From a virus, in IMG/VR virus record IMGVR_UViG_3300033149_002311, positions 1 through 64,000 of that record: a stretch of 64,000 bases of DNA; one strand, given 5' to 3'. This document shows, piece by piece, positions 1,736-46,239 of the stretch. The position numbers were made by a program, and so were the translations under genes. Each line of letters begins with the position of its first letter. Positions within the stretch are counted from its first letter, which is position 1. The notes below the pieces were generated by a model. The model was not told the DNA's origin and searched no databases. It saw only the letters and a program-made list of their open reading frames with translations.

Positions 1736-2703
1736 AAACTTGTAGGGGAAAGTAAATGGAAAGACCTCAATCAAACCGACACTTATTAGGCCCATGTTCT
1801 GATGGTATTTGCAAATTAGGTATTTATGCTAACAATGGGACCAGTAATTTGTTTCATGGCTGCAAGCCTAAACATAATCATCATATCACAAACCGAATTA
1901 AACCGGCCCGTGTTTGGCTTGATGAAGAAGGTTATATTTGTGCGGAGGTTGGTAAGAAGAATGAAATGCCAACCAGCGGTCAATTTGTAGCCATGTGGGA
2001 ATTTGATAACCAAATCTGGTCACGTACCCTCAAATGGGTTGATGATGTTTTAATGTTTCTAGACATCAAAACTAACGAATTTGTTGAAGATTCTTCATGG
2101 CCTAAATTTGACCCCGAAGATAATGTTAATCCTATTTACCATGTGATTGATCATGAATAAAATTCACTTTGCAGTCGAAGGGCGTAATGGTTATTGGGCC
2201 ATCGACGAATACCAGAACCCAAATGGCGACAAATATAGTGGCTGTATTCGGCATGTCGAATCCTTTGAAATACAAAAACAAGCTAATTCAGTTTGTAGCT
2301 ATTTGAATTATCTAGCTGACCAGATAAACAAAGCTAACAGATTCCTAAATCATGCAGAAAAAGGGATGCCACAGGATTGGTTGCTTGTTAGCGACATCAA
2401 ACAATTCTTAACCAGATATAGGGGATAAACAAATGCCAATAATCAAATGTATGGCCGATGATTGCCGGTGGAATAAAGATAATATTTGTGGTGCAGCAAT
2501 TGCCGAACTTATCTTCCGTGGGGGTGAGAATCCTGAATGCATATCCTTTGATAGCACACAACCGATGCCAAACGAAGCTATTACCCTTCTACAAGAGGCA
2601 CAAGCCACTTTACCAGATCAATGGCTTGCTAAACCTGAAGCAATTAAGGATTTAGTTAACAGAATTGATATCTTCCTGTCTAACCATAAATAGAGGTTTG
2701 CCA

Positions 2704-2925
2704 ATGGCCCCCGGATTTAATCCTTTACCAGTATTTATCCTATTTTTTATAATTATCACACTTTATATGGTCCCGTCAATAATAGCTTATGTATTAAAGC
2801 ATAAACATCGCAGCAATATATCGATAATTAACCTCATGCTTGGATGGACAATAATCGGGTGGTTTGCCTGTTTAATATATACCCTAGCATGCCTCTGGAA
2901 GGCTGATCTGTGCGACGAGATTTAG
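2704..2925 (+). CDS. Superinfection immunity-like membrane protein (T4 Imm family)
   Basis: LYMVPSIIA...INLMLGWTIIGWFACLIY matches the Imm_superinfect pattern. Confidence 0.8.
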   Translation: MAPGFNPLPVFILFFIIITLYMVPSIIAYVLKHKHRSNISIINLMLGWTIIGWFACLIYTLACLWKADLCDEI

Positions 2926-2960
2926 TAAAGAGGAGCCCCTCCCCGGCCCTCAGGTGGGTG

Positions 2961-3033
2961 GGATAGCTATATATGTGCCGGGGTATATCGCCGAGTGGCA
3001 AGGAGATACATCCCCGTGCGACGGAGACATACC
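2961..3033 (+). repeat. About 73 bp element repeated at 56053-56126
   Basis: Shared blocks ATAGCTATATATGT, GAGTGGC and TCCCCGTGCGACGGAGA at identical spacing. Confidence 0.85.
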
Positions 3034-3231
3034 GGTGATATCGATCGATAGGGTGGGTGGTGACCAGAAATACACTAAGCAAATGATAAGACCCCCATAC
3101 CTGTTACTAAATCTCGCATGCGTGAGCATTATACGCTACGCGCACCAGAGGCTGTCCGTAGTCACAAACTCCCTTAGAATCCAAGACATTTTCGAGACCT
3201 TAGCCATTTTGAATATCTGTTCCATGAAGTG

Positions 3232-3247
3232 TGTTTCACGTGAATCA
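3232..3247. promoter_or_regulatory. parS-like palindrome
   Basis: TGTTTCACGTGAATCA is 15/16 to the chromosomal parS consensus TGTTTCACGTGAAACA; half-sites TGTTTCACG at 3570 and 3583. Confidence 0.55.
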
Positions 3248-3510
3248 TTTGATATTAGATTGGATCTAAAATTTTCGGTTTAAATTAACATCTCAAAATT
3301 GCTTCGGGATTATTTTTAAAAATGGGTACAGCAGGGTCAATATCCGGGAATATACCCTGTCTGTCCATAATTATTTTGCGGACTGACTACCGTTTCCGGC
3401 TCTTAAAAAAAGAGATGACCCCCATTGGTTATTTTTAGGTCATATGGTCACCCTCGAACCCACTACGGACATATTCCTTGTCGTCCTCCGATTCTCAGGT
3501 AAAGATGGGA

Positions 3511-3539
3511 TTGACCTTACTGGCCGGACATGATATACT
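3511..3539 (+). promoter_or_regulatory. sigma70-type promoter of the primase gene
   Basis: TTGACC-17-TATACT with TG extension. Confidence 0.75.
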
Positions 3540-3619
3540 GCCTCGGCATACTCTCTGAGGTATCCGGAGTGTTTCACGAGTATGTTTCACGGGATTAATG
3601 ACATAGAGAAGAGGGCTTT

Positions 3620-5137
3620 ATGAAATATTTTATGGATCTTTTTGTTGCCAATACTGAAGTATTTGGGCAGTGGAATCCGAGTAATAAAGAGATGTTCGCG
3701 GTGAAGTCTAAACACCACGAAGAGCAGTTTAAGAATCATTTTAATGGGATCATGGGATTAGGTTTAGCACCTGTTATGAGTAACAATCATTGTTATTTCG
3801 GGGCTATTGATATTGACGCGCATGGTGATTTACCGGATATTGATATTATTGCTTTAGAGGCAAAGATCAGGGTCGCTGAATTACCGCTTGTGGCTTGCCA
3901 AAGTAAGTCTGGGGGCGCTCATTGTTACGTCTTTTTCGAGGAGCCTGTGCCAGCAGTTATGGTCCAGTTTTTATTGAGAACGTGGTGCAGACTTTTAGAT
4001 TATCCGGAGACCACGGAGATTTTTCCGGTACAAACAGTACTTGAGGAAGGTCAACAAGCTGGGTGGATAAATTTACCATACTTTAACAAAAATCAGCGGG
4101 TTGCAGCTAATGAAGGAAAATTACTTTCATATGAAGAATTTATCGAACTAGCACAGGCTAGAAGAATTAACCCAGATAATATTAGCGATGAAATGCTAAA
4201 ATCGTTTAAAGGAATCCCACCATGCCTACAATCGATGCTAACAAATGGTGTGGAGTCGGGTTATCGCAACCACGCCCTTTACAATTTTACAGTTTATCTA
4301 AAGCGGGCCTATCCCGGCCAGCATCGAGCAAAAGCTCGTAACATCAATGAACTTATTTTCGAACAACCACTATCAAGGCGGGAGGCTGAACGTACAATAG
4401 CATCGGCTTCCAAGCGGGATTATCTTTATAAATGCAAGGAAGAGCCCTGTAAAAGTTTATGTAATCCGGAGGAATGTATTGCTAGAGAATTTGGTATTGA
4501 TCCCGATGAAGATTTTAACAATGGGGAAGAACACCATTTTTCGAATCTCCGGAAGTATATTACTGACGAAACGCATGAATTTGTTGTCTGGGAACTTCAA
4601 TATGACGAACGAACAATAAAAATAAATAATGATGTCTTATCTGATTTCATGATGTTAAGGAAGGAAATCCTAAAACAGTTAGATGTAATGCTCCCCCCCA
4701 TGAAGGTAATGGAATGGACCAATATTCTAAATGATTTATTACAAACTCATACTAAGGAATTTGTGCCAGAAACGGCAACCATGGCTGGGCTGGTAAGAAC
4801 TCGGATGACGGAATTTATTCAAAAGGCCGATCTAGATAGTGATGGGACAAATAAAGATGACCGGGCATTGATTAATAGAGGTGTGCCGGTAGTTCAAGAA
4901 ATGGACGGGGTTCGTTCAGTGTGTTTCCGGGCACAAGACTTTGTTAGTTACCTAAAGAAAACTAGGGGTGAGGATATTAGGGGGTCGAATCTCTATCTTG
5001 CTTTAAGGGCAGCTGGTTTAAAGTCAAGGAGAATTCGTCTTGATGAAACTGGAGCTAAGACTAGTATATGGTATTTACCTATTGATGAGATGGTCCCAAT
5101 GGAATTGGGTGAGGATAATTTTCAATCAGAATATTAG
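3620..5137 (+). CDS. AEP-family DNA primase/polymerase with PriCT-like and Cys-rich domains
   Basis: AIDID and SKSGGAHCY catalytic motifs; GYRNHALYN PriCT-like segment; CKEEPCKSLCNPEEC. Confidence 0.85.
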   Translation: MKYFMDLFVANTEVFGQWNPSNKEMFAVKSKHHEEQFKNHFNGIMGLGLAPVMSNNHCYFGAIDIDAHGDLPDIDIIALEAKIRVAELPLVACQSKSGGAHCYVFFEEPVPAVMVQFLLRTWCRLLDYPETTEIFPVQTVLEEGQQAGWINLPYFNKNQRVAANEGKLLSYEEFIELAQARRINPDNISDEMLKSFKGIPPCLQSMLTNGVESGYRNHALYNFTVYLKRAYPGQHRAKARNINELIFEQPLSRREAERTIASASKRDYLYKCKEEPCKSLCNPEECIAREFGIDPDEDFNNGEEHHFSNLRKYITDETHEFVVWELQYDERTIKINNDVLSDFMMLRKEILKQLDVMLPPMKVMEWTNILNDLLQTHTKEFVPETATMAGLVRTRMTEFIQKADLDSDGTNKDDRALINRGVPVVQEMDGVRSVCFRAQDFVSYLKKTRGEDIRGSNLYLALRAAGLKSRRIRLDETGAKTSIWYLPIDEMVPMELGEDNFQSEY

Positions 5138-5536
5138 AAAAAATACATCCGTAGGATATATTTTGCTTTGAACCTACAGGGAGAAAAGTATGGCGGGACC
5201 AGATATAATAAGCAAACCAGAAATAATCATTATTGATGATGAAACTATTATCATCCGGAAAAGGGAATAAGATATGGCTGGTAATTATGATCAGGGGCGA
5301 TATACCAAAAGATAATGTACAAGAAAGGATGAGCAAATGAAAGAGTTATCAACAGACCGCAATGTGTTCGCTGATCATAACAATTACAGGCGCAAATATT
5401 TAAACTCGGGCGTGATGCGGAGAAAGATTTATTTTATAATTAAAATGAACAAATTTAGGGTCCCATCACCCAGTGAAATGGAAGACATACCCCAAACAAG
5501 GAACAGCAATGATAATTTTCAATCAGAATATTAGAA
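5114..5536 (+). repeat. 26-bp direct repeat GATAATTTTCAATCAGAATATTAGAA at 5114-5139 and 5511-5536
   Basis: Exact duplication of the primase 3' end; both ORFs end in DNFQSEY. Confidence 0.9.
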
Positions 5537-7982
5537 GAATGACTTGTGAGTTTTTAGGTAGACGGCTAAACTCAAATACTTTGATGTGGGAGTATTCAGA
5601 TGGTTCTGGTAGGTTGATTACTGAGGAAAAAAGAATACGGGTACTAGAGAGTATACATAGTCTGTCTGAGTTTAAGATTAGTGATAAAGTATATAAAGGT
5701 AATAACGGACTTAATGTTTTAGCAGAGCTACATATTAGCTAAGTATGAATATTGAAGAAGATGCGCCTATGAATTACCGAGGAGGTATACTCATGTTCAA
5801 TATTTTCAAAAAGAAAACGACTGAAGAAAAAATAATTAAGCTTAAGTGTGAGATCGCAGCGATGGAAAAGGAGATAGAAGTTCTTTGGAAAATTGAAACT
5901 AAAGGCGGTTATTTATTTGGTAAGCGTGATGAAATCATTTCCGTGGAAAAGAAATTGGCTTACAAGAAAAAGAAAATAGAATTATTACAATGTTAAGTAA
6001 AAGTGGAAAGGTTGAATGGAGTTGCCCTGAATGTGGATCAATTAAGATACAAGGGCCATTTATAATACTTGGGCAGCAATCTGGAGGATGTGGCCACTGC
6101 AATACTTGGTGGCCTTGGCGCTCAAGAATTAAAAAAAGTGTAAAGAAATTGCACAATGAAATTAGAAAGAGAGTGTTTTGTAACAGTTTGAAGGAGAAAT
6201 AGTTATGGCGGTAATGAATCAAAATACGAGTTATGAGAATATTTGTTCTTGCGGCAAACATTTTAAAGGTGATGCATTCCCAGACACCGAATTGATTCCT
6301 GATGAAGCCGGGTCAATTACTGGAAAGGATGGAACTAAAGGTCGGATAGAATGGGTGCCAGCGACAGTTAAAGATGGGTGTAAGGATTGCATATCACGAC
6401 TAGAAAAAGAAGTTGAGGAAAAATACTACGTAGAATTAGATGCTTTGCCTCTCGAAGAAAGAGTACGAAGAATCGAAAAGTGGATAAGGAATTTCAAGCA
6501 TCAAGAACAATGGTATGTGCCGCCACCTAGATATTGAGAAATAATATGAGTGCAGATACATTATGGAATTGGGATGTAAAGTGGGTAAATTTTAAATGAA
6601 TGATGCAGGTTTAATATTTATAGGATTCCCATTTCTTGTGGTTTTTTTAAGTTCAATTATGTGGTTAAGCCATAAATTAGTTGGGATCTTACCCTTGAAT
6701 TATATTCAGCAAACCAAGTGGGAAGATAGAATATTTTGTTTATTATTCATTATTTTTTGGATCGGCTTCGCATTTTTAGCAAAACTAATAGAGGGTTGAT
6801 AAGATGCCACAAATCGGGATGGAAGTAAATGAGAGTGTATGTTGTGATGATTGGCAAACAGGGATAGATGAGATAAATAGTTTTATTACATTGCAATCTA
6901 TACGATCAAGCCAACCAAATATCTACACCGGAAGGCCATTTTCATACTGCCCGTGGTGTGGGATTAGGAAAGCACCGCCAATGGTGGTGGATAAACATAA
7001 AATTATTGAACGCTGGGAATGTAATGGTTGTTATAGGGGGGTGGTAAGTATCCTTGTATAGTAGAAATACACGCTGATAATTCGCAAATTCTTGAACACT
7101 TAAAAGATGCTGATCGATTCGTACGAAAAATATGTGTCTGTGATAACAGCATAACAACTGATTGGGTACGTGTTGTTTGACTATCAGCGGTTGACTATCA
7201 TATCAGTGTGTGGTATGATAGGGTATAGAAAAGAGGGAGGGACAGATGAAATTATCCAGTGGTTTTGATTCACCAAAAGAATTAATAGGTTATTGTTCTA
7301 TTCATTGTGAGACACCGAGAGCACTGTTTAATGGCAGACAAATTAATGATATGATCATGCTTGCGGGATATCCAGATGACTTCCCAAGAGAGGTTGACCC
7401 CAACCTATGGATTTCTGCAAAGCAGCCGATGCAAGATTTGTGCGACTTAGCACTAAAAAGATGAAGGGTAAAATGAAAGCCGTATTAACGGTATACCACT
7501 TTATGTACCCCCAACATTTCTATTATTTGATGGGTAAAGGCATGGGTGTACGCTGGACTCCTTCGTGGTTTATTTTAAGTCCAGTTTTACGTAAAAATTG
7601 GGGAATGCTTATTTTATTATTTTGCTTAGCCGGTTGCAGCGATAAAGTTATACTTAGCTATGAATATACGGACGTCACCCCGATGGGTATTAAATATCGT
7701 GTAGATGCCGGGGCTGCTTCATTAGACGCCGATCGGTTGGATTATTACTTCGCGTCTGTGATGAATTGTGTTGGTCGATCATATGATCCAAATAATTTAT
7801 TAGTTATTTCCACAGTCAGGAATATTGATCCAGAACTAAGGGAACGTGATGTGGTTGTTATCAATGCAATTAATGCACGGGCCTTAACATATGCCATGTT
7901 GACGTATGAATTTGTATATGTAATAACAGGTAATGAATCCCTACGCTGTAGTGAAGTACCATTTGGTTATGCGAGGTATTAA
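5337..7982 (+). other. Cluster of small hypothetical genes (several CxxC proteins, membrane proteins and a lipoprotein-like ORF ending at 7982)
   Basis: Packed + strand ORFs; LAGC lipobox in the 7407-7982 ORF. Confidence 0.65.
7191..7219 (+). promoter_or_regulatory. sigma70-type promoter, nearest upstream of the cassette array
   Basis: TTGACT-17-TATGAT; TTGACTATCA is duplicated at 7177. Confidence 0.75.
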
Positions 7983-43320: not shown

Positions 43321-43875
43321 ATGAAAAAGTTAATTATCTTTATGGCTATTATATTGGCTCTTGTTGGGTGTAATGCTAATGATTCTCAAAGCACGAAGAT
43401 TGCTCAATCTGTAGAGCGGCAACAGTCACAATATGCTACTGGGCAGCCAGTGCCAGCATATGACTGGAGTTTAGAGCGTGACTTGGTTATCCAGTTATAT
43501 AATATTCGCAATATGAAAGCACTAACACATTCTGTTTGGCGTAGCGATCGCGGCTTAGTCGAGGGCGATTGCGCAAGCATCGGGTTTGGCATCCCTTATG
43601 ACACCAGCTTAACAAATCCACTTGTTGCTACCGACGAAGATCAAAATGGATATAGCAACAACGCACTAACATCAATCGAACAGCCGGAGCCTAATGGCAT
43701 ATTTGCCAGTAAAAATACCTCAGCAACATGGGTAATGTGCGCCGGTGACACTGGAATGATTGAACCGGTTTATATCGAAACGAAGGTAACTGTTTATCCA
43801 TATTCGGTAAAAGTTGATTATGCTAATAACCGAGTCACTAAATCTGGAAAAGCCAGTGTTACTCTAAAAAGATAA
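43321..43875 (+). CDS. Putative lipoprotein, preceded by membrane protein 42987-43310
   Basis: Signal peptide with LVGC lipobox. Confidence 0.75.
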   Translation: MKKLIIFMAIILALVGCNANDSQSTKIAQSVERQQSQYATGQPVPAYDWSLERDLVIQLYNIRNMKALTHSVWRSDRGLVEGDCASIGFGIPYDTSLTNPLVATDEDQNGYSNNALTSIEQPEPNGIFASKNTSATWVMCAGDTGMIEPVYIETKVTVYPYSVKVDYANNRVTKSGKASVTLKR

Positions 43876-43933
43876 TCCATATGAAAAAATTTATAAACGG
43901 AACTAGGAGTGATCGGCCCGTAGGAGGTGTAAT

Positions 43934-45349
43934 ATGAAAGCTTACGCCATCTACGGGCCACCGTGACCGGGTACCGGGAAAACTACTGAATTAATTAGAA
44001 TTCAGAGGGATATCATAAAACAGGGTCGAAACCCGAAGCATATAGCTTTTTTATCACATACCAAAACGGCTGCTGCAGAAATAGTTGGTAGAGCCCCAGA
44101 AGGTGAGAGGGCGGGTCATGCATCTACAATACATAGTATGGTATATAGATTATGTGGTATCAGCAATGGCCAAGTAATTGACATCGATAAATTAAAGGAA
44201 TTCAGTAAGTTGGTTCACGTTCCTATTGTAGGCCGAGGACCAGAGGTAGAAGAGGTTGAAATTGGTGACGAATTTTTAGCAATTTATGATCTTTCTAGGG
44301 CTAAAATCGAGAGTCCGGAAGTAACATATGCAAATTCCCATAGGCCGGGGTCATTCGCTTTATTTACTAAATTCCACACAGCATATGAGGAATGGAAAAA
44401 GACGTACGGATATGTCGATTTTACCGACATGCTTCAAAAGTATATAGATAAGCCGATCAATCACAATATTGCTATTTTCATAATTGATGAGGCTCAAGAC
44501 TTGTCACCCCTGCAATGGAAAGTTATCGATGAAATGGCCAAATGGGCCTATCATATTATTATTTCAGGTGATGATGACCAAGCGGTATTCTATTGGGGTG
44601 GTGCCGATCCACAAGGGATGGTTAAATTTGAAAAGAAATATAAGGCCAAGCGGAAAATACTGGCGCAATCATGGCGCATACCGTTAGTGGTCCATAATTT
44701 GGCAAATAAAATAATTAATCCCATTAAAAATCGTGTTGAAAAAGAATACAAACCACGTGATGAAGAGGGTAAATTATTTAGACATTCTACATTTATGACG
44801 GTTCCGTTGGAAGGTAACATTCTAATTTTATTTAGAAATCACTCCATTAGAAAGGATATGGAAGAAATCATTATCGACCACGCACTCCCATATAAAGTTA
44901 GATCAGGCATGCCGGGGTTGCTTCAAAATCGATATGCCAATGCTATACGAAAATGGAAAAAATTGATGGATGAAGGGTCATTAACTGATAAAGATGCCTC
45001 AGCAATAAGGAGGTGTGCCTACCCACACACTGCTCAATATTTAGCTGATAAAAATTTTACTAAATTATCAACGATGACATGGCAAAAAGCACTAAAGATA
45101 CCGCATTGGATGTTAGACTATTACAATAAGATTGATTTTGATATAGAGCCGAAAATTGAATTATCAAGTATACACGGTGCTAAGGGCCATGAATCAGACG
45201 TGGTGGTGGTGAATACAGGTATGACACAACGAACCGTGGAATCAGCAGTAAAAGACCCGGATTCTGAAGCTAGGGTCTGGTATGTAGCGGTGACTAGAGC
45301 TAAACACGAATTACATATTGTAGAAGGGGAGAGTGGGTATTTATTATGA
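43934..45349 (+). CDS. UvrD/Rep-like SF1 helicase with an in-frame TGA inside Walker A
   Basis: GGAGG RBS and ATG 43934; reads YGPP*PGTGKTT, FLSHTKTAAAE, STIHS, IDEAQD, GDDDQ, QSWR, HGAKGHE, YVAVTRAK in one frame. Confidence 0.85.
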
Positions 45350-46239
45350 AACAATATCTTGAATTATGTAAAAAAACGATGGAAAATGGTATTAGAAAAA
45401 CTAATCGTACCGGTATTGACCACATTGGTTACACTGGTGATATGATGAAATTCGATCTATCTAAAGGATTCCCGGCGGTAACCACCAAGAAGCTGGCCTT
45501 CAAATCTGTAGTGGCCGAAATGCTGGGATTCTTGCGCGGGTACGATAATGCTGCTGACTTTCGAGCCCTTGGTTGCAAGGTATGGGATATGAATGCCAAC
45601 GAAAATCAGCAGTGGTTAAACAATGAAAACCGAAAAGGTGAGGACGATCTTGGCCGTATTTATGGCGTACAGGGCAGACGATATAAGAAAATTAATGTTT
45701 TCAAGGACACTAAAGTATTTCCATCGGGTGGCGTGACTACTGTCGAGACTCAGGAAATTGATCAGTTGCGTATGGTGTATGACGACCTACGGCAAGGTAT
45801 CGACAACCGTCGCGAAATTGTTACCCACTGGAATCCGGGAGAAATGGATATGATGGCCCTACCTCCTTGCCACATGTTCTACCAGTTCGGCATTCATGGT
45901 GACAAGCTTAACCTGTCCATGTATCAGCGTAGCTGTGATGTACCCCTTGGCATACCCTTCAACATTGCCGGTTATACGTGGCTGTTGAGCGTGATGGCGC
46001 GGATCACTGGACATGTTCCGGGTGAATTTACTCACTTCATGCACGACATTCACATCTATGAAAACCAGATGGATGATATGCATATTCAGATTGCGCGCGA
46101 GCCGTTCAGATTGCCACGGATGCATATGAACCCCAATATCAAGACGTTGGAGGATTTAGAGACGTGGACCACACCCGATGATTTTCGTTTATTGAATTAC
46201 CAGCATCATGAGCATATTAAGTATGCATTTGCAGTATAA
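45346..46239 (+). CDS. thyA: Thymidylate synthase
   Basis: TTKKL, MALPPCH, YQRSCDVPLGIPFN and HIYEN. Confidence 0.95.
   Translation: MKQYLELCKKTMENGIRKTNRTGIDHIGYTGDMMKFDLSKGFPAVTTKKLAFKSVVAEMLGFLRGYDNAADFRALGCKVWDMNANENQQWLNNENRKGEDDLGRIYGVQGRRYKKINVFKDTKVFPSGGVTTVETQEIDQLRMVYDDLRQGIDNRREIVTHWNPGEMDMMALPPCHMFYQFGIHGDKLNLSMYQRSCDVPLGIPFNIAGYTWLLSVMARITGHVPGEFTHFMHDIHIYENQMDDMHIQIAREPFRLPRMHMNPNIKTLEDLETWTTPDDFRLLNYQHHEHIKYAFAV

Follow-up and report, generated by a model that had tools for sequence, protein, structure and literature searches.

How can a virus obtain a helicase from a gene whose Walker A motif is interrupted by a stop codon? The question is raised by one locus of a virus from the IMG/VR collection (record IMGVR_UViG_3300033149_002311), a linear metagenome assembly of 89,264 bp, 79% complete and with 40% GC. 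Positions 1 to 64,000 of this record are the window analysed here, and the gene in question, which encodes a UvrD/Rep/PcrA-like superfamily 1 (SF1) helicase, carries the sequence CCG-TGA-CCG inside the Walker A motif, directly behind a strong stem-loop. Since about 50 diverged relatives carry an insert of the same type behind the same hairpin, a hop over the insert is the most likely explanation, and the comparison of sequences makes it probable that, in the window helicase, the peptidyl-tRNAPro crosses the stop in a programmed manner.

The interrupted Walker A motif

The helicase frame runs on the plus strand from the ATG at 43934-36 to the TGA at 45347-49 (472 codons). Both the ATPase and the C-terminal domains are present, as given by Pfam matches to UvrD-helicase (PF00580, 1.9e-21), AAA_19 (PF13245, 9.5e-14) and UvrD_C (PF13361, 3.4e-10), and the nearest solved structures are those of UvrD (4c2u), PcrA (1pjr) and Rep (1uaa). 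Codon 11 is TGA, the local reading being MKAYAIYGPP-TGA-PGTGKTT, and a contiguous Walker A (GxxxxGK[ST]) is not encoded in one frame, the DNA spelling GPP-TGA-P-GTGKT. A first, sequence-only reading of this DNA had claimed a stop between matched codons at this place; in fact, CCG-TGA-CCG is present at 43961-43969, and the omission of TGACCG, 6 nucleotides (nt), turns the motif into the canonical GPPGTGKT. The remainder of the gene had been described as intact, and after the second CCG the sequence continues as GGT ACC GGG AAA ACT and remains open, without interruption, for 460 codons down to the TGA at 45347-49.

The site can be divided into consecutive elements, all of them on the plus strand. 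The first coding segment (43934-43963), an ATG and nine further codons, gives MKAYAIYGPP, that is, the pre-P-loop strand and the first three residues of Walker A. Its last codon, the CCG at 43961-43963, is the second proline of a Pro-Pro pair and the putative take-off codon, occupying the P site when the stop reaches the A site. It is followed by the in-frame TGA (43964-43966, with C as the next base), which is proposed to be skipped, and by the CCG at 43967-43969, the proposed landing codon, with which the same peptidyl-tRNAPro would re-pair without a second decoding. The second coding segment (43970-45349) restarts at GGT (GTGKTT...) and comprises the remainder of the UvrD-like SF1 helicase.

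Because the pre-P-loop strand and the first Walker A residues lie upstream of the stop and the rest lies downstream, one polypeptide must cross the site. This bears on the idea of a split gene, in which a leader peptide of 10 residues would be followed by re-initiation downstream to yield the helicase. An open reading frame (ORF) of 403 amino acids (aa) can indeed be called from the ATG at 44138 and, in one relative (L189), the stop overlaps an ATGATG in the downstream frame, termination and re-initiation being an alternative at that locus alone. Nevertheless, no ATG, GTG or TTG occurs in the window between the in-frame stop and codon 68 (44138), so that the stretch from 43967 onwards offers no start before that position, the product from 44138 would be entirely devoid of Walker A, the stretch from the stop to 44138 shows conservation at the protein level, and the pre-P-loop strand is encoded upstream of the stop. 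A split gene is, on these grounds, hardly credible.

An alternative genetic code, with TGA read as Trp or Gly, was considered and rejected, because TGA ends 36 of the 101 ORFs of at least 120 aa in the whole record, the helicase included, and because TAG and TAA occupy the same site in relatives while the nearest relative is without the codon entirely. A suppressor tRNA was also rejected, no tRNA being detected in the window or in the whole record. A scan of the record looked, in addition, for hairpins of -18 kcal/mol or stronger followed by two matched-dinucleotide codons with a stop between them. Six matches were obtained, among which the helicase site alone has a long downstream frame (460 codons, against at most 15 in the rest), and no other convincing hop site was found in the 89,264 bp.

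Recurrence of the insert and its stem-loop

A degenerate pattern (YGPP-stop-PGTGKT) led to a second viral contig (L005), with CCG TGA CCG again at codon 11, in a helicase only 27% identical to that of the window. An unbiased scan, where the middle codon was left free (NNN), gave 11 loci; all seven helicase loci carried a stop (TGA, TAG or TAA), and the four loci with a sense codon were chance matches, none of them in a helicase. The metagenome collection yielded 23 loci, namely 21 helicases with a stop, one helicase with TGG (L026) and one chance match, while the GTDB genomes yielded four, one by chance and three helicases with TAG, on contigs binned to metagenome-assembled genomes (MAGs) of Bryobacteraceae, Elusimicrobia and Gemmataceae. 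Six further helicase loci were added by a GSGKT-variant pattern, and 33 new loci by a variable-gap pattern, four of these being non-helicase and two being left uncounted (a cut-off duplicate and a match too near the locus end). After deduplication, 49 distinct helicase contexts from viral, metagenome and genome collections bear the insert at exactly this spot. The search of homologues for matched codons around a stop thus refuted the possibility, entertained by the sequence-only reading, that relatives never have it. The 49 contexts represent roughly 10 lineages, one clade supplying many of them, and the insert-free canonical pattern, found at 120 loci at least, is far commoner.

The first inserted triplet is TAG in 20 contexts, TGA in 16, TAA in 12 and TGG in one, a stop being present immediately 3' of the take-off codon in 48 of the 49. 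Since the three stops are used interchangeably, it is "a stop" that is conserved, and not a codon with a new meaning. The leader that precedes the site has 10 residues in the window and from 10 to more than 30 in relatives, and shows no conservation beyond [FY]GPP. As regards the flanking triplets, the take-off codon is CCG (35), CCA (9) or CCT (5), never CCC, and the triplet before the resuming GGN is CCG (15), CCA (12), CCT (3), CTA (8), CTG (7), CTT (2), TCG (1) or ACA (1). The landing triplet is of the form C[C/T]N in 47 of the 49 contexts (CCN 30, CTN 17); as amino acids, these triplets mean Pro, Leu and Ser, which are unrelated, and as RNA, CCN, CUN and UCG can all pair with an NGG anticodon if G-U is allowed. 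Moreover, CCC accounts for none of 56 take-off and landing triplets versus 111 of the 528 Pro codons (21%) in the same ORFs, counts which are not phylogenetically independent, and it is the usual codon one position upstream of take-off. Its absence fits the use of a single tRNAPro species to read both take-off and landing.

The inserts measure 6 nt in 44 contexts, 7 nt in two, 8 nt in two and 13 nt in one. In the five whose length is not a multiple of three, an intact helicase frame of 463-600 aa continues downstream in another frame: CCG TAA T CCT GGT with 489 aa in L182 and L193, CCG TAA TT TCG GGG with 600 aa in L180, CCA TGA TG CCG GGC (8 nt) with 463 aa in L189 (site near 5696, minus strand), and the 13-nt insert after a CCT take-off codon in L176 (site near 3868). 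The triplet before the glycine can pair with a proline anticodon in three of these four non-triplet forms. At L176, a +1 slip from CCU to CUU would give GPPDGKTGTGKT.

These counts allow the hop to be weighed against programmed readthrough, according to which a near-cognate tRNA would decode the stop, the P-loop would be two residues longer (GPP-X-P-GTGKT) and the stop would serve to keep expression low. UGA-C is a leaky stop context, 44 of the 49 inserts are in frame, and the TGG of L026 is followed by an intact frame, all of which readthrough would accommodate. The 7-, 8- and 13-nt inserts, however, cannot be read through, although the frames after them are intact. Also, a tolerated insert would predict common sense codons, and these were seen in none of the seven helicase loci of the NNN scan and in one of the 49 contexts overall. 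The residue after the stop is Pro or Leu, chemically unlike, whereas the RNA, C-pyrimidine-N, fits anticodon pairing. Furthermore, known readthrough stimulators lie 3' of the stop, while the conserved element lies here 5' of it, and GPPG[TS]GKT is uninterrupted in every insert-free homologue. In L026 (BBPE01000030.1, near 6641), which alone has a sense codon at the site, the hairpin is retained and a frame of 469 codons remains open; the TGG could be a recent mutation, an error, or a sign that a lengthened P-loop is tolerated. Readthrough is, on balance, unlikely.

The stem-loop was also among the claims made from the sequence, and both of its stems, together with a strong fold, were borne out. 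In the window it occupies 43915-43959 on the plus strand, with an outer stem of 9 bp, in which GGCCCGTAG (43915-23) is exactly complementary to CTACGGGCC (43951-59), an inner stem of 7 bp, in which GGTGTAA (43926-32) pairs with TTACGCC (43942-48) through one G-U pair, and a loop of 9 nt (43933-41). The segment 43905-43985 folds at -35 kcal/mol (z = -3.98), a value matched by none of 200 shuffles. The 3' arm corresponds to helicase codons 3-9, and a single nucleotide separates the end of the stem from the first CCG.

In order to describe the family, the 60 nt ending just before the take-off codon were folded in the 49 insert contexts and in 63 insert-free controls, the latter drawn from the canonical-pattern loci among the matches listed. 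A terminal helix lies 0-2 nt from the take-off codon in all 49 insert contexts versus 4 of the 63 controls. All 49 fold at -14 kcal/mol or stronger, the mean being -25.5 kcal/mol versus -7.2 kcal/mol in the controls, and for the first 22 the mean z-score is -4.3 versus +0.3 (Mann-Whitney p = 5e-12). Pairing at stem positions -2 to -11 is seen in 42-49 of the 49 contexts, and positions -1, -7, -8, -10, -12 and -13 covary, with several pair types and double changes included; at position -1, for example, G-C is found 20 times, A-U nine times and C-G four times.

It had been proposed that the hairpin serves to bury the ribosome-binding site. For the window the occlusion itself stands, as the Shine-Dalgarno (SD) sequence AGGAGG (43922-27) lies within the 5' arm and the ATG within the loop, and the 5' arm, in L005 and L006 as in the window, is part of the untranslated leader, where it masks the SD or the ATG. 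The burial does not extend to the family, since in L008, L013, L166 and the large "AEETREFRIFGPP" clade the entire hairpin lies inside a coding leader of 19 to 30 codons and still ends 0-2 nt before take-off. What appears constant across these sequences is the position of the hairpin relative to the take-off codon; as this distance is kept even inside coding leaders, the conserved role would be tied to the hop site and not to the ribosome-binding site. The 3' arm measures about 10-12 nt, which is roughly the distance, along the mRNA, from the P site to the exit.

A strong hairpin in nascent RNA which abuts a short direct repeat (CCG ... CCG) could also act before translation, the RNA polymerase realigning the first CCG on the second, or an unknown processing event deleting the 6 nt. 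Such a removal at the RNA level is quite unlikely. In fact, take-off and landing often differ (CCG/CCA in 8 contexts, CCG/CTG in 7, CCG/CTA in 5, CCG/TCG in 1), mismatches which tRNA wobble tolerates, but which would not be tolerated in the realignment of an RNA 3' end on DNA. Neither a U-tract nor a homopolymer run occurs in the window, the periodicity follows codons, and a stop, for which this mechanism has no requirement, is nevertheless present in 48 of the 49 contexts.

As regards other RNA structures, no Rfam family was matched in 43700-44200 at E up to 1, and no conserved 3' stem-loop was found across the insert-bearing family when the 36 nt from the take-off codon were folded (-5.7 kcal/mol versus -3.7 kcal/mol in the controls, GC being higher in the insert set); in the window, the only 3' structure is a 4-bp CCGG/CCGG stem. 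A candidate upstream ORF of 18 codons (43881-43937, plus strand), read from the sequence and not conserved in relatives, begins 5 nt past the stop of the preceding gene, crosses the hairpin's 5' arm and terminates at a TGA overlapping the helicase ATG (ATGA). Its translation may couple that of the helicase and open the hairpin.

Relatives, selection and neighbouring elements

The protein-based locus search recovered only one relative among viral contigs (L003) and none among metagenome contigs. The L003 helicase has 94% aa identity to that of the window and is without exactly these 6 nt, reading GGG CCA CCC GGC ACT GGG; the two are homologous from the very ATG onwards, and no complementary 5' arm precedes it in L003. 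Two further insert-free proteins, P0004 (83% identical) and P0124 (78%), start with MKAYAIYGPPGTGKT, and the N-terminal peptide encoded by the first segment of the window is identical in P0123, P0004 and P0124, all of them insert-free. Conventional gene calling gives, for the window, the 403-aa protein from the ATG at 44138, which lacks Walker A. The identical call (P0003) is recorded from seven contigs, the longest of 89,631 bp. A second truncated call of 403 aa (P0005, contig of 3,696 bp), 78% identical to the window helicase and with the same internal Met start, shares a 90% cluster with the full-length P0124 (470 aa).

In GenBank, no near-identical phage was found by megablast, and the tblastn matches were at most 40% identical. 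The helicase of Salmonella phage PMBT28 (40% identical) has YGPPGTGKS at the site. No cultured carrier was found among PMBT28, DSL-LC04, Meiothermus MMP7, Thermus Riverbug and 023Pt_psg01, which are five of the 104, 76 and 74 records matched; in these five the site is canonical or the motif is absent.

Selection was estimated from the ratio of non-synonymous to synonymous substitution rates (dN/dS). For the window and L003 helicases the ratio is 0.030 with a dS of about 1.0, and pairs with the insert in both members give 0.11-0.28 with dS above 1. From the first pair it follows that the lineages are old and that the frame after the stop has been kept under strong constraint in the window; the frame downstream of the stop is under purifying selection. 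This has a bearing on the simplest explanation of all, namely that the insertion of 6 nt inactivated the helicase or was created by the assembler. The sequence does come from an incomplete metagenome assembly, its three closest relatives are insert-free and one related lineage is further damaged. Against this, 49 contexts, which come from three collections and from independent samples, have inserts of the same type, the hairpin accompanies the insert (49 of 49 versus 4 of 63), the 460-codon frame is intact at the dS and dN/dS given, and the recording of an identical truncated call on seven contigs argues against an assembly error. An inactivated gene or an artefact is, therefore, very improbable.

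A FastTree phylogeny of 79 helicases, of which 16 bear the insert and 63 do not, was made before the later loci were added; it requires at least six changes of the insert trait, three of them forced by well-supported branches. Within it, 10 insert-bearing rows form a deep clade of their own, and the window is placed among insert-free relatives. This pattern indicates that some lineages have kept the cassette for long, while others have gained or lost it.

With respect to its neighbours, the window helicase lies among a primase-like gene, a thymidylate synthase gene and a DNA polymerase gene. Its stop overlaps the start of the thymidylate synthase gene (ATGA), located at 45346-46239 (Pfam 2e-88). 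The ORF upstream (43321-43875, phrog_24725) has no nuclease signature, and no HNH gene was found beside the window helicase. Among relatives, by contrast, an HNH_3 ORF directly precedes the helicase in 4 of 20 loci with the insert versus none of 56 controls, an association which involves only about two independent lineages. These genes are found in L005 (9577-10140, minus strand), L022 (10425-10862, minus strand), L024 (68-511) and L025 (4183-4674), and weaker HNH matches occur in L027, L028 and L033. In L005 the HNH gene ends within the hairpin's 5' arm, its stop codon preceding the helicase ATG by 4 nt. Other insertions were also noted: L006 (helicase at 2382-5195, minus strand), L018 and L023 have large ones after the GDDDQ motif, with a sub-threshold Pfam match to Intein_splicing in L006 (E 1.1e-7; 32.2 bits, cutoff 35.8). 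Selfish elements seem to target this helicase family often.

A putative hop and its known counterparts

According to the proposed mechanism, synthesis would start at the ATG at 43934 and proceed to MKAYAIYGPP, and the ribosome would then pause with the peptidyl-tRNAPro on the CCG at 43961-63 in the P site and a poorly terminating Pro-Pro-UGA-C at the A site. A fraction of the ribosomes would escape termination, the tRNA unpairing and the mRNA sliding by 6 nt, until the same tRNA re-paired with the CCG at 43967-69 and decoding restarted at GGT. Nine nucleotides would in this way specify one proline, and the product would have the canonical GPPGTGKT P-loop. At take-off the 3' arm of the hairpin would be held open inside the ribosome, the 5' arm being already outside, and the re-zipping of the two would favour forward movement, as has been proposed for the bypassing of gene 60 in phage T4. 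The purpose could be a low or tunable helicase output. Alternatively, the insert could be a tolerated indel by which the conserved DNA of Walker A escapes an HNH homing endonuclease encoded nearby; an origin analogous to the protection from MobA in T4 would be plausible.

Several points weigh against the hop. We infer it, together with its efficiency, the role of the hairpin and the regulatory purpose, from sequence comparison only. The nascent peptide is just 10 residues long at the time of the hop, unlike the gene 60 signal, and a stem abutting the P-site codon would not be fully formable at take-off, so that the role of the stem is a conjecture. The length of 44 of the 49 inserts, exactly 6 nt and in frame, is compatible with readthrough too, and a functional L026 copy may mean that a P-loop lengthened by two residues is tolerable, which would favour readthrough. 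The landing triplet of L176, ACA, is unable to pair with a proline anticodon. Phylogenetically, the 49 contexts are not independent of one another. One lineage (L020, L032 and L039, the Bryobacteraceae MAG contig) has a second in-frame TAG 73 codons past the hop site, where relatives have Trp, and DEAR instead of DEAQ as its Walker B, these being probably decaying copies; in L030 the frame is locally disturbed. Synthetic stop-hops have an efficiency of about 1%. Their low level is also the account given in the relevant passages of PMC5009743 and bioRxiv 10.1101/2024.12.09.627546.

Set against these points, the claim of a programmed bypass between matched codons draws support, at the level of sequence, from the recurrence of the insert, the use of three stops, the proline-like landing triplets, the non-triplet gaps, the covarying stem and purifying selection. 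A broader proposal, namely that these helicases constitute the first natural family of programmed in-frame stop-hops, in which a compact signal of three parts, namely a stem-loop of 10-12 bp adjoining the take-off codon, a Pro-Pro-stop stall and a landing triplet pairable with tRNAPro, would cause 6 (sometimes 7 or 8) nt to be skipped in the Walker A of phage SF1 helicases, appears somewhat more plausible than its contrary; the cassette might have spread with HNH homing endonucleases, as a change of the P-loop DNA which spares the protein.

Translational bypassing is among the rarest recoding events, and the accepted natural cases are few: T4 gene 60 and its homologues, the yeast mitochondrial inserts and some candidates. 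If the hop is true, it would be a natural example of a short stop-hop, which only synthetic constructs have provided to date. A conserved and very short cassette with many natural variants would also provide a minimal, easily mutated system for studying the unpairing and re-pairing of peptidyl-tRNA, the contribution of a 5' stem-loop and the use of Pro-Pro-stop stalling. For annotation, the implication is that gene callers give such helicases as truncated proteins without Walker A, as with the 403-aa P0003, or as pseudogenes. Furthermore, should the HNH link hold, the idea derived from gene 60, that bypassing renders an endonuclease-immunity indel harmless, would be extended to a second gene family. 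A full-text search of the literature, covering few subscription journals and no supplements, found no natural stop hop and no helicase bypass; in the 2022 preprint on gene 60 homologues (bioRxiv 10.1101/2022.08.31.505936) the words helicase and Walker are absent.

The closest precedent in form is synthetic. As related in the passages on this subject in PMC5009743, Weiss, Dunn, Atkins and Gesteland (1987) obtained stop-hops in E. coli with matched codons around a stop, 9 nt specifying one amino acid; the peptidyl-tRNA was proposed to re-pair 6 nt downstream, with a slow-to-decode A-site codon as the trigger. The same passages of this 2016 review by Atkins and colleagues state that in-frame stop hopping had been shown with synthetic constructs and that, in nature, "no occurrences are known". 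Those hops were engineered, free of stimulators and low-level, whereas the helicase signature is natural, recurs in about 10 helicase lineages, uses Pro codons after Pro-Pro and always comes with a 5' stem-loop.

A second comparison is with the terminase of Streptomyces phage phiHau3, for which the part of PMC10732093 consulted describes candidates for a UUA-triggered bypass of 10 nt. Going by that part, the two cases share a short gap placed within a conserved ATPase gene of a phage, a 5' stem-loop as the proposed stimulator and a reliance mainly on comparison with insert-free homologues. They differ in that the trigger in phiHau3 is a rare sense codon, UUA, and not a stop, that its gaps shift the frame, that 3 of 100 genes are concerned and that the gene family is another one. 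As for UvrD, PcrA and Rep themselves, the domains are common to all, but the window gene is shorter (about 470 aa) and its Walker A is interrupted at the DNA level.

The most instructive comparison is with T4 gene 60. There, in the portion of bioRxiv 10.1101/2024.12.09.627546 concerned, pairing of the exiting mRNA in a 5' stem-loop located 9 nt 5' to the take-off codon is proposed to drive forward bypassing, and, in that of bioRxiv 10.1101/2022.08.31.505936, the bypass insert is described as shielding the DNA from the neighbouring MobA (HNH) endonuclease. The helicase is a different gene with no sequence relation to the gene 60 cassette; its gap is of 6 nt, rarely 7, 8 or 13, in place of 50 nt, its 5' stem lies 0-2 nt from the take-off codon in place of 9 nt, and the tRNA would be that of Pro instead of Gly. 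In addition, no clearly conserved A-site or take-off stem-loop was found in the helicase family, a long nascent-peptide signal would hardly be possible in the window because the leader has 10 residues, and the window has no recognisable HNH neighbour. Nevertheless, both systems have matched take-off and landing codons, a stop directly 3' of take-off and a 5' stem-loop which would form from exiting mRNA, and in both the element resides in a conserved motif of a phage DNA-metabolism gene, with an HNH gene upstream in some of the helicase relatives.

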